Assembly: GCA_951406725.2 (NCBI GenBank)
Contig: OX597815.1
Span: 209,498,001 to 209,562,000 of the forward strand
Origin: Octopus vulgaris
Lineage: Eukaryota
Length of the DNA: 64,000 nucleotides
Direction: 5' to 3'
The stretch's first letter is position 1. Each line of letters opens with the position of its first letter. Made by a program: the position numbers and the translations under genes. Shown here piece by piece: positions 98 through 60,877 of the stretch. Under the pieces are notes generated by a model that worked only from the letters and a program-made list of their open reading frames with translations, did no database searches and was not told where the DNA came from.

Positions 98-1366
98 TCA
101 GGTTGAGTAAAAAATAAACAACGTTTTGAACCAAGAAGAACTTGTATCGGATTTTTGCAGAATTTTGAATTTTTTAAACACTTTTTTTGCAATTGTCTGA
201 TAATACAGACATAGACTTGTCCAAATGCATCAATAAATTAACATTGATATTATTTCATCTGAAATGAAACTGTCAAAGTGCAATATTCGAACAATTTTGC
301 TATTCAACTTCAAAAAAGGACTTAAAGCAGCTGGAACTGCTCACGGTATCAATGAAGCGTTTGGTGAGGAAATGACCATGACCAGTGAATGGTCAGCTCG
401 AAAATGGTTTAAACGTTTTCGCAGTGGAGACCTGAGCCTTGAAGATCGTGAGCGTAGTGGATGCCCAACTGTTGTCGGTGACAGTCAATTAAAGACTGTC
501 ATTGAGAAAGATCTACGTAAAACCATTCGAGAACTGGCAAAAGAACTTCAAGTTAGACAGAAAACTGTCTGCTACCATTTGCATGCGATCCGAAAATCAG
601 AAAAGCTTCACAAATGGGTACCACAAGATTTGAATGATAATCAGAAAGTGGGCAGATATAAAATTTGCCCATCGCTTCTTCTCCATAATCAGACCGATCA
701 ATTTCTCGATCGTGTTGTAACTTGTGATGAAAAGTGGATTCAATACAATAATAAAAACGTTTTTCGCAGTAGTTGGATCAAAATGAAGCACCGAAAACCT
801 TCCCAAAATCTGAGCTCTTCAAAAAGAAGCTATGGTGACTGTTAGGCAGTGTACTGCTGGAGTCATCCACTATAACTTCCTAGAACTCGGAAAAACTATT
901 ATTGCAGAAACAAATTGTCACGAAATTGCCAAAATGAACGAAAAACTGTTGCTCCTCCATCTCTGACTGGTCAACAGAAAAGGGCCAATCGTTCTTCATG
1001 ACAATTCTTGACCACACGTTTCACTAATGGCGCTCCAGAAGTCGAGGGAACTTGGCTACAAAGTTCTTCCCCACCAGCTTATTCCACAGAACTTTCTCCT
1101 ACCGACTACCACTTTTTCAAGCACCTTCATGATTTCCTGCGAGAGGAGTTCAAAAATCAAACTGAGGCTGAAAGTGCATTCCAAGAGTTCATCAGCTCCA
1201 GAACTCCAGATTTTTATATTACTGGAATAAACAAACTTGTAACTCGTTGGCAAAAATGTGTTGAGTGTAATGGTACTTACTTTGAGGAATAAAATTACCG
1301 CATTATTGAAATATATTGTGATGGATTTCATGTTTCAAAAATTTGCTTACTTTTTACTCAGCCTGA
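98..1366 (+). mobile_element. Full-length mariner (DD34D) transposon with frameshifted transposase
   Basis: Imperfect TIRs TCAGGTTGAGTAAAAA.. / ..TTTTTACTCAGCCTGA; TA TSD at 96-97 and 1367-1368; motifs WVPQDL, TCDEKW, HDNS, YSTELSPTDY, RWQKCVE split over several frames (264-1292). Confidence 0.93.
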
Positions 1367-7589: not shown

Positions 7590-7892
7590 TATATATATGT
7601 GCAAGAAATATAGCATGAATTGTGACAATTAGCATAAGGACTGATAAATTACCTAGAAGTGTCAGCTACATGAAGTACAATGTATGAATAGATACTAATA
7701 TATGTTTAGGTAGTGAGGAAAGAAATTACGTTCAATTGACAATGCAATTAACTAAAATTATTTTGCTTGTGATGTTAATATGTTAGTACTTACTTTTACT
7801 ATTGTATTGTAAATAGAATAGCTAAGTAATTTGCCTCATTAATTATATTAATATTAACGCACTTAACATAAGAAAATAATTGGAATATGTAA

Positions 7893-7955
<63 letters not shown>

Positions 7956-7960
7956 TGATG

Positions 7961-8050
<90 letters not shown>

Positions 8051-8354
8051 GAGGAAGACCTGGAAATAGAGGTAACTAGAATGTGGAATCTGAAAACAGA
8101 AACAATTCCTATCATAATAGGTGCATTAGGCATGATAAAAAAATATTCAGACAAATACAGAACAAAAACACCAGGACTTACAAACACATATAACATACAG
8201 AAAATTGCACTACTAGGCACTGCACACATCCTACGCAGAACACTTTCCATACAATAACCATCAGAGCATCACAACAAATCACAGCACATACCCAAGGCAC
8301 ACAGAGCTGTGCTCGGTAGTGAAGTGAAAGCACGCTATAAAAATAAAACTACTG
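8051..8354 (+). mobile_element. 5'-truncated R4/Dong-clade non-LTR retrotransposon (restriction-like endonuclease C-terminus and 3' UTR)
   Basis: EDLEIEVTRMWNLKTETIPIIIGALG..IQKIALLGTAHILRRTL*; (AAT)n on both sides; Dong elements are known to target (TAA)n. Confidence 0.8.
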
Positions 8355-8383
8355 AATAATAATAATAATAATGATAATAATAA

Positions 8384-8522
8384 CTAGGCACTGCACACAT
8401 CCTACGCAGAACACTTTCCCTACAATAACCATCAGAGCATCACAACAAATCACAGCACATACCCAAGGCACACAGAGCTGCGCTCGGTAGTGAAGTGAAA
8501 GCACGCTATAAAAATAAAACTA

Positions 8523-8525
<3 letters not shown>
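8384..8525 (+). mobile_element. Second, shorter copy of the same R4/Dong 3' end
   Basis: Near-identical to 8213-8354, same 3' junction into (AAT)n. Confidence 0.8.
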
Positions 8526-8570
<45 letters not shown>

Positions 8571-8599
8571 AATAATAATGATAATAATAATAATAATTA

Positions 8600-10180
<1,581 letters not shown>

Positions 10181-10198
10181 GTAATAATAATAATAATA

Positions 10199-10282
<84 letters not shown>

Positions 10283-45939: not shown

Positions 45940-47151
45940 AACTTAGATAACTTAGATATGTTTCGACCAAAGATTGGTCCAGGCCATGTCTAACTTAATA
46001 GCACCACCTGATAGGATTGTTCGAATCCTGTTTAAGTCAAGTTTTGTTCAAGTAGTGAGTTCTTGTTGGGTGAGTTGTATCAAGTTTTGTTCAAGTAGTG
46101 AGTTCTTGTTGGGTGAGTTGTATCCAATTATGGGTGGTTTATCTGGTATTCTTTGAAGGAATCTATCCAGACTCCGTTTAAAGTTGATGGGATCCTTTTC
46201 CTCTTTGATCTCCCTCGGGACAATGTTAAATAGGGCAGGGCCTGTTGAGGAAAAGAAATTATGTTGCAGTGTTCATGTATGTTGTAGACTGGAGTTGAGT
46301 TCGGTCTGCTTCTTGATTGACGATTTGCTGGAGCTTAGTGTCATCAGCAAATATTTTCACTTTGCAGTAATGTACGACACTGGAAAGGTCGTTTATGTAA
46401 ATTATGAAGAGTAGCGGACCCAAAACAGACCCCTGGGGAACACCGCTGGTGACTTTTGCTGGGCTTGAGTGGACTTCATCAACTACAACATGTTGTGTTC
46501 TATTCGCCAGGAAATACTTAATCCAGTGTAGAACGTTTCCACGGATTCCAACATTTGCCAATTTTGAGAGTAGGATATTATGGTCTACCCTGTCAAACGC
46601 TTTACTGAAGTCAAGATATATGACGTCAGAGTTCGAACCTGTTCCCAAGGCTTTGAGTACATCTTCAATGTGGTGTAAGAGCTGTGTTAGACAGTCCCTG
46701 CCACAGCGAAAGCCATGCTGATTTGCATTTAGGAGTTTGTGGGTCTCCAGGAAGTCAGCTATCCTTGATCTTAACACTCTTTCAAACATTTTAATGATGT
46801 GGGAGGTGAGTGAGATTGGGCGATAGTTGACTGCGAGGGATCTGTTTCCCTGTTTGAAAACCGGGATGACCGACAGGGATAGAAGCTGTTTCGGTATATA
46901 ACCTGCGTCTAACGAATTTCTCCAGAGGTTGGTCAGAGGGACTGCAAGTTGGTGTCTACATTTCTTCAGGAGACTAGCGGGGAATCTATCAGGGCCTACA
47001 GCAGAGTAGTATTTGACCTCATTTATTGCTGCTACGATGTCAGTGGCAGTGAAGGTTATGTCTGAGATTTTATGTCAGCTTCGTTCGTTTCTCTTACGTC
47101 AATATCAGTGGGAACACTAAAGACAGAGCAGTATTGTTTCCGCAGTATTTC
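45940..47151 (-). mobile_element. CR1-type LINE fragment with internal deletion
   Basis: NQHGFR, YLDFSKAFDRVDH, SGVPQGSVLGPLLF, IFADDTK, joined directly to C-terminal GPALFNIVP..FKRSLDRFL and an (ATCTAAGTT) tail. Confidence 0.92.
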
Positions 47152-59761: not shown

Positions 59762-59837
<76 letters not shown>

Positions 59838-59842
<5 letters not shown>

Positions 59843-60816
59843 TTATATATGAGGATAATATCGATATTTAAGTATCAATATTATCAAGTGGCCAGCATGG
59901 AAAAAATACCGTACAAAGGTAATAATTTTTAACAATTAAAAATGAGGGTGTCTAAGAGACACCAACATGCCGAAATAGCAGTCGAAATTCTGACTATAAA
60001 AACCACGTTAAGTGTTCATATCGTACCATGAGATAAGACAGAGGGACAAAATATTCATGCAAAAGTTATTGAATAATTCAAGATCCAGGATTTCTGGTTT
60101 TGCTTTAAATAAGCTTTACCGTCATCAATTGAATATATCAAGGGTACATAAATACAGATATATATATGCAGAACAAACGATATACTTACATATACGAACG
60201 TCCATACATACATACATATGTACGTATGCACACGGCCAGTTAAATTGCCCGCCAAAACACCCCATAAGCACGATATGGTTAAAATAAACACCGCAGTAAA
60301 TATAATAACGAATTATATAAATTTATATATGAGGATAACATTTTTGTTAAAAATTATTACCTTTGTACGGTATTTTTTCCATGCTGGCCACTTGATAATA
60401 TTGATACTTAAATATCGATATTATCCTCATATATAAATTTATATAATTCGTTATTATATTCACTGCGGTGTTTATTTTAACCATATCGTGCTTATGGGGT
60501 GTTTTGGCGGGCAATTTAACTGGCCGTGTGCATACGTACATATGTATGTATGTATGGACGTTCGTATATGTAAGTATATCGTTTGTTCTGCATATATATA
60601 TCTGTATTTATGTACCCTTGATATATTCAATTGATGACGGTAAAGCTTATTTAAAGCAAAACCAGAAATCCTGGATCTTGAATTATTCAATAACTTTTGC
60701 TTGAATATTTTGTCCCTCTGTCTTATCTCATGGTACGATGTGAACACTTAACGTGGTTTCATAGTCAGAATTTCGACTGCTATTTCGGCATGTTGGTGTC
60801 TCTTAGACACCCTCAT

Positions 60817-60824
<8 letters not shown>
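59838..60824. mobile_element. Inverted pair of a 480-bp hammerhead-containing monomer in (TA)n
   Basis: Near-identical arms in different circular permutations; HHR at 60076-60134 (minus) and 60625-60683 (plus). Confidence 0.85.

Positions 60825-60877
<53 letters not shown>

Follow-up and report, generated by a model that had tools for sequence, protein, structure and literature searches.

Positions 59841–60824 of a 64,000-nt stretch of the Octopus vulgaris genome (contig OX597815.1 of assembly GCA_951406725.2; hereafter, the window) raise the question of what kind of element inserts as two inverted copies of the same ribozyme-bearing unit, and of which machinery put it there. The initial annotation, made from the letters of the window, described a retrozyme-like monomer of 480 bp with one hammerhead ribozyme (HHR) in each arm, present in different circular permutations, and proposed that a circular ribozyme RNA had recently been integrated.

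Layout of the insertion in the window

The insertion consists of two head-to-head arms of one 480-nt unit inside a (TA)n tract (Table 1); the minus strand of 59841–60320, numbered 1–480, served as the reference unit. An 18-mer occurs at 59841 and again at 60321, which confirms the period of 480 given by the initial annotation, and the remainder of its description of the layout was recovered as well: both unit junctions, (TA)n on either flank, inverted arms (99% complementary) and, in both arms, the hammerhead motif with a U3·G8 core, with its AUC triplet ending at 60677. The arms differ at six places: four substitutions, one 1-nt deletion and, at site A, a loss of 4 nt. With arms that are 99% identical and a closest other locus at 98.5% identity, the claim of a recent insertion also holds.

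The 480-nt unit has a GC content of 32%, and no ORF of at least 120 aa overlaps the element. Its folding is far above that of shuffled sequences (z = −5.87), internal microsatellites accounting for part of this, and the hammerhead does not form in its minimum-energy fold. The broader reading of a noncoding tandem hammerhead unit, derived from a circular or tandem template, is supported.

Table 1 Features of the insertion, in positions of the window
Feature	Position	Strand	Remarks
Left (TA)n target tract	59768..59840	.	
Left arm (unit 463–480, then 1–480)	59841..60338	−	3′ end (site B) outward into (TA)n at 59841
One complete 480-nt unit	59841..60320	−	
93-nt 'tail' between end sites A (59934) and B (59841)	59841..59933	−	
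32-nt near-palindrome, left arm	59854..59885	−	13 nt upstream of site B
Type I hammerhead motif, left arm	60076..60134	−	core UUGAUGA; predicted cut between 60082 and 60081
Head-to-head arm junction	60338/60339		
Right arm (unit 377–480, then 1–387)	60339..60824	+	4-nt deletion at site A; 3′ end (site A) outward into (TA)n at 60824
32-nt near-palindrome, right arm	60394..60425	+	B/1 unit junction downstream at 60438/60439
Type I hammerhead motif, right arm	60625..60683	+	core UUGAUGA 60631–60637, GAAA 60665–60668; palindromic 3-bp stem III; AUC triplet ends at 60677
Right (TA)n target tract	60825..60873	.	

Copies, ends and templates of the family

A DNA search of the genome (2.8 Gb, 227 contigs) with the unit gave 114 matches from the best 40 of 2816 candidates. 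Exact motifs of 21–22 nt occurred at least 348 times (5′ half of the hammerhead), at least 484 times (end A) and at least 759 times (end B), each count being a lower bound for different sub-lineages. The reversed control of each of the three motifs had no genome match, so these occurrences are not due to chance. The window element is one of several hundred dispersed copies of a family whose relatives range down to ~76% identity. The copies mostly comprise 0.3–3.5 units and are often inverted. An older lineage is ~76% identical to the window unit and 81–91% identical to its own query copy, and its period and ends match those of the young lineage. Among 93 young units the median nearest-neighbour divergence was 0.8%, indicating that amplification was recent. 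The family was also present in contigs from four of four public sequencing runs, whose status as RNA is a guess.

The ends were mapped in all 62 insertions behind the first 100 listed matches of the hammerhead 5′-half motif. Copies end at two fixed sites, A (unit ~387) and B (~480), which are 89–93 nt apart and face outward into (TA)n, and they vary in their 5′ truncation point. Inverted insertions, with both 3′ ends outward, made up 37/62, and 34 of these 37 had one A and one B end (A = 383–392 and B = 477–480 in this tally); none was A/A or B/B, and three had one irregular end. If each end picked A or B independently at even odds, 34 mixed pairs out of 34 would have p = 2^-34. The other 25 of the 62 were uninverted, 5′-truncated copies that ended at A (n = 17), at B (n = 6) or elsewhere (n = 2). 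Of 40 further loci, chosen by the end-A motif, 28 were inverted, 23 of them A+B and five with an irregular end. One of these five (L253), the sole possible exception to the A+B rule that we saw, joins A with a near-A end (379) and does not adjoin (TA)n.

The window copy obeys the same rule, with B on the left and A on the right. Its arms are literally different circular permutations, as initially annotated, but their outer ends are family-wide fixed sites, so the permutations come down to two fixed start sites. Tandem units occurred in arms of up to 1674 nt. Freely varying permutation points find no support in these loci, whose ends are fixed and paired A+B as in insertions of Penelope-like elements (PLEs). 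Sites A and B both lie in loops of predicted A/U hairpins of only about −1 kcal/mol, to which we attach no evidential weight. A Helitron/Helentron origin, prompted by the palindrome near end B, seems improbable, given the lack of a CTRR end, the variable 5′ truncation and the inversions.

Arms run seamlessly across the unit junction and the hammerhead cut site, the latter being crossed by 15 of 42 arms chosen by their end motifs. A sub-lineage marker near position 317 was common to both arms in 33 of 34 inverted loci, the exception being the window, which has a private change. Core pairs per locus were TT/TT (n = 18), CC/CC (n = 9) or TC/TC (n = 1), and the two young cores were mixed at no locus; four loci flagged as mixed turned out to be three spurious pattern matches and one single-base change. 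Tandem units were concordant in 25/25 arms. Among 87 locus-private alleles (private relative to 85 sampled loci), 74 were confined to a single unit, while 13, from 11 loci that include one duplicated insertion, were common to all units covering the site. The shared markers, the concordant units and these 13 alleles point to one template per insertion, with multimers repeatedly regenerated from a monomer; the 74 single-unit alleles count against this. A circle would explain this regeneration simply, and template re-use or local DNA homogenisation may be alternative sources of unit homogeneity; on balance, and with some reserve, we favour as the template a monomer circle that is copied through more than one full turn. 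An apparent polarity of variants between tandem units, which would imply that the master array was linear and heterogeneous, proved to be an artefact of alignment gaps.

The hammerhead in old and young lineages

The canonical hammerhead core (C3 U4 G5 A6 N7 G8 A9) does not occur in the window, which has UUGAUGA, and stem II of the window hammerhead is closed by an unpaired C and an unpaired A. Rfam hammerhead models had no match in the window at gathering level or at E ≤ 10, the matches obtained being microsatellite-driven miRNA models. When 19 sequences, old and young, were aligned to the type I structure, 94% of cells were paired, a count that beat shuffles (0/500), with the stem III sequence fixed by the search pattern in 15 of the 19 rows. 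Changes on both sides were found at three pairs (one each in stem I, stem II and the stem II extension); this number was no gain over shuffles (423/500), and the covariation mirrors a single split between the old and young lineages.

The core was canonical in 19/32 old-lineage motifs and 10/14 mid-age motifs, whereas the young-lineage cores among the first 100 listed matches were UUGAUGA (n = 79) or CCGAUGA (n = 21). In 48 arms, the core started with CCG (n = 30), TTG (n = 15), TCG (n = 2) or CTG (n = 1). An uncompensated C3U change is expected to impair cleavage; our literature search found no paper on this or on a U3·G8 core. According to the available text of two studies, U4C has lower activity in vitro and is tolerated in a viroid in vivo (PMC3088659), and a mismatch at the base of helix II is known in an axolotl retrozyme (PMC7229834). 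Hammerhead-like motifs with a CCGANGA core and a well-paired stem I were also observed at L123, L299, L050 and L116, where they belong to a further PLE family or to unrelated repeats nearby, so U4C recurs in the genome.

Compared with the minimal hammerheads of PLEs, as far as these are described in the available part of PMC4209133, the motif shares an extra base between A9 and G10.1, the G10.1–C11.1 pair and a short palindromic stem III suited to dimers. Unlike them, it has an added A before G12 and a stem II extended by an internal loop, and U3 stands with G8 in the window lineage, whereas the variant described there is U3-A8.

We then considered where copies begin relative to the cleavage site. 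Ends at unit positions 230–250 were found at the 5′ side of 5/174 arms, against 7.6 expected; locus sets chosen by the hammerhead motif are biased against such ends. A hint of them in mid-age copies (4/42) did not recur in 40 new loci (1/61). The lack of enrichment means that cut linear monomers left no footprint, which fits either a ligated circle or an uncleaved RNA. With the U3·G8 core of the window lineage and 5′ ends that are not enriched at the cleavage site, the working ribozyme implied by the initial annotation was not borne out.

Li et al. (2026; 10.64898/2026.07.22.740005), in the part of the text available, define a retrozyme by two consecutive hammerhead units in direct orientation. 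The window has one hammerhead per inverted arm, and consecutive direct units occur at other loci (e.g., four at L096). We do not file the window lineage as a full retrozyme, because its core is not canonical and the circles are putative. It is likely that the hammerhead made monomers in the older lineage, and likely also that it is weak or dispensable in the young lineages; the contrast between old and young cores provides a natural control for cleavage. A further reading, offered tentatively, is that the ribozyme has been outgrown: the youngest amplifying sub-lineages, with two different single core changes, would still form homogeneous multimers from a monomer, a PLE would copy that one template with strict asymmetry, from A for one DNA strand and from B for the other, and the hammerhead would persist as a folding or dimerisation element. 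If this is true, the family would be a protein-free, countable readout of how a PLE coordinates integration on two strands.

Penelope-like elements and their probable role in mobilising the unit

A total of 6136 candidates for GIY-YIG-bearing elements were found in the genome, and a 781-aa open frame was present in 16 of 150 listed matches. It matches RVT_1 and GIY-YIG, and a cysteine-rich linker precedes the endonuclease; by this linker we read it as Neptune-type, following the available part of the description by Craig et al. (10.1101/2021.04.23.441226). This PLE family is young, with a 4.7-kb unit and an upstream coding-like stretch (L106–L122; e.g., L109 1741–6453), and its copies terminate in (TA)n at either of two sites separated by about 40 nt. 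Among 17 copies, two were inverted, both A+B, and the other 15 ended at A (n = 13) or B (n = 2). The family also has a hammerhead-like motif whose core is of the U3-A8 type known from PMC4209133. The likeness of this PLE's ends to those of the 480-nt unit was weak (B, p = 0.045; A, p = 0.25; 330-nt region, p = 0.41).

BLAST, tBLASTn and profile searches among the loci sampled from the 6136 candidates revealed no PLE whose terminal repeat is homologous to the unit, and a profile of 32 natural units, run over 74 GIY-YIG/PLE-bearing loci of several families, detected only neighbouring independent copies. In 174 + 69 locus records centred on the element, tBLASTn found PLE fragments in a few; between those inspected and the element lay (TA)n or hundreds of bases, except at L278. 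Apart from this ambiguous locus, no ORF for RT plus GIY-YIG lay in the unit or continued from it. The initial annotation had set its reading against copies always attached to a PLE ORF with fixed ends: the ends are indeed fixed, but the copies are unattached, L278 being ambiguous.

At L278 (1210–1850), an inverted PLE terminal repeat (L062 type) and 69 nt of endonuclease sequence directly abut a 5′-truncated old unit, a type of join seen in 1 of 244 records. A switch of template involving PLE RNA and element RNA would account for it, and so, equally, would a later deletion between neighbours with a common (TA)n tract. At L284 and L302, copies of the 480-nt family share a (TA)n tract, tail-to-tail, with other Neptune-type families, whose tails differ in length.

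Partial tandems, a head-to-head inverted 5′-truncated copy, a tail of 30–40 nt usually at one end, and microsatellite targets are features of PLEs according to the available text of Craig et al. (10.1101/2021.04.23.441226) and Arkhipova et al. (PMC3846280). The 480-nt family resembles Neptune-type PLEs in its two alternative 3′ ends that bound a tail, with the tail on one side only (34/37 and 23/28 A+B), in the head-to-head inverted 5′-truncated copy, the partial tandems and the (TA)n target, and in a hammerhead with a palindromic stem III upstream of the end. It differs from them in that it has no RT-EN ORF, its tail is 93 nt rather than 30–40 nt, and the whole unit is tandemised rather than the terminal repeat.

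As in metazoan non-LTR retrozymes, so far as these are covered by the available text of PMC7229834 and 10.64898/2026.07.22.740005, the unit is noncoding, low in GC, a few hundred bases long, tandem and strongly self-paired, with a type I hammerhead, and it coexists with PLEs. Unlike them, it mostly occurs not in long arrays but scattered as insertions that have two fixed ends and are often inverted, the core of the young lineages is non-canonical, and no matching PLE pseudo-LTR (pLTR) was found among the sampled loci. Cervera and de la Peña (2020; PMC7229834) proposed PLEs as the mobiliser of retrozymes, and neither inverted copies nor a microsatellite target is mentioned for retrozymes in the available part of that paper. 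The available text of Li et al. (2026; 10.64898/2026.07.22.740005) backs PLE mobilisation with pLTR homology in 31 vertebrates, three insects and one anthozoan, and reports cleavage in only 1/9 dimers.

Given these patterns, the 480-nt unit likely represents a retrozyme-like, non-autonomous family that is mobilised by PLEs. Probably, and here we have good confidence, a Neptune-type PLE RT-endonuclease acts in trans: both strands are nicked, cDNA synthesis is primed at A and at B of a single RNA, circular or multimeric, and the resulting cDNAs are joined head-to-head. In detail, the enzyme would nick both strands of the (TA)n tract, and reverse transcription would start internally on one circular or multimeric RNA, for one strand at A and for the other at B. 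The two cDNAs would stop at variable points before head-to-head joining, and failure of the second priming would yield an uninverted 5′-truncated copy. Frangieh et al. (PMC11167929), in the part available, report that purified PLE protein nicks and extends both strands, that it starts at two internal sites bounding the tail, and that hammerhead mutants insert normally. The start site showed no strand difference there, and so the A+B pairing is not explained by that part of the study.

That the two arms reflect a fold-back error of the assembly, or a DNA inversion that arose locally, is extremely improbable: no sequencing contig from the four public runs spans the whole stretch, but the arms differ at six places and are differently permuted, and 37/62 loci have the same architecture with a strict end rule, which disfavours the artefact named in the initial annotation. 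We also regard as very unlikely a SINE-like RNA mobilised by a LINE through twin-priming 5′ inversions, an origin that would accord with the 5′ truncation, the head-to-head inversions and the LINE fragments in the window. Twin priming leaves a single fixed 3′ end, an internal priming site that varies and arms with little overlap, whereas in this family each of the two ends is fixed, overlap between arms can reach a full unit, and the element has no poly(A) or simple-repeat tail of its own. It is unlikely, too, that the unit is a solo or tandem pseudo-LTR of an unsampled autonomous PLE and the copies 5′-truncated PLEs. The insertion anatomy is identical to that of PLEs, retrozymes match pLTRs in Xenopus (10.64898/2026.07.22.740005, available part), and the GIY-YIG candidates examined are a fraction of the 6136; however, what lies downstream of B and upstream of the hammerhead is another unit and not an ORF, in young and old lineages alike, and nearby PLE fragments lie beyond (TA)n where inspected, or hundreds of bases off, with L278 as the exception.

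A classic active non-LTR retrozyme, in which the hammerhead cuts tandem transcripts, ligation yields abundant 480-nt circles and reverse transcription starts at arbitrary points, seems doubtful to us. It would account for the tandem, low-GC hammerhead unit with its strong fold, for homogeneous units in arms of up to 1674 nt that cross junctions seamlessly, and for the canonical core in 19/32 old-lineage motifs, and the U4C tolerated in a viroid (PMC3088659) and the mismatch at the base of helix II in the axolotl retrozyme (PMC7229834) would ease its demands on the core. Yet the ends are fixed and not arbitrary, the young cores are UUGAUGA (79/100 listed) or CCGAUGA (21/100 listed), 5′ ends at 230–250 are no more frequent than expected (5/174 versus 7.6, and 1/61), and the hammerhead is absent from the minimum-energy fold.

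Mobilisation of animal retrozymes by PLEs has so far been argued from coexistence and from terminal-repeat homology. In the 480-nt family, for which no PLE homology was detected, the PLE signature lies in the insertion footprints themselves, and the A+B pairing, known qualitatively as a 'tail on one end', is here counted (34/37). A 480-nt template and an intact 781-aa enzyme in one genome make PLE second-strand priming and the hammerhead's role directly testable. Our literature search found no description of a cephalopod retrozyme; Repbase, Dfam, subscription journals and supplements may list the family. A 2026 octopus repeat annotation does not mention ribozymes in its available text and one supplement (PMC13282606).

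Other elements were observed in the window. Positions 7880–10281 hold a fragment of a LINE-like 3′ end, 171 bp of which are duplicated, and after it three copies of a ~340-bp unit that alternate with (AAT)n tracts at a period of about 482; we take it to resemble a Dong/R4-type element targeting (AAT)n. A fragment at 237–845 (+) is presumably of a mariner-like transposase and one at 46259–47074 (−) of a LINE-type reverse transcriptase, both named by likeness.
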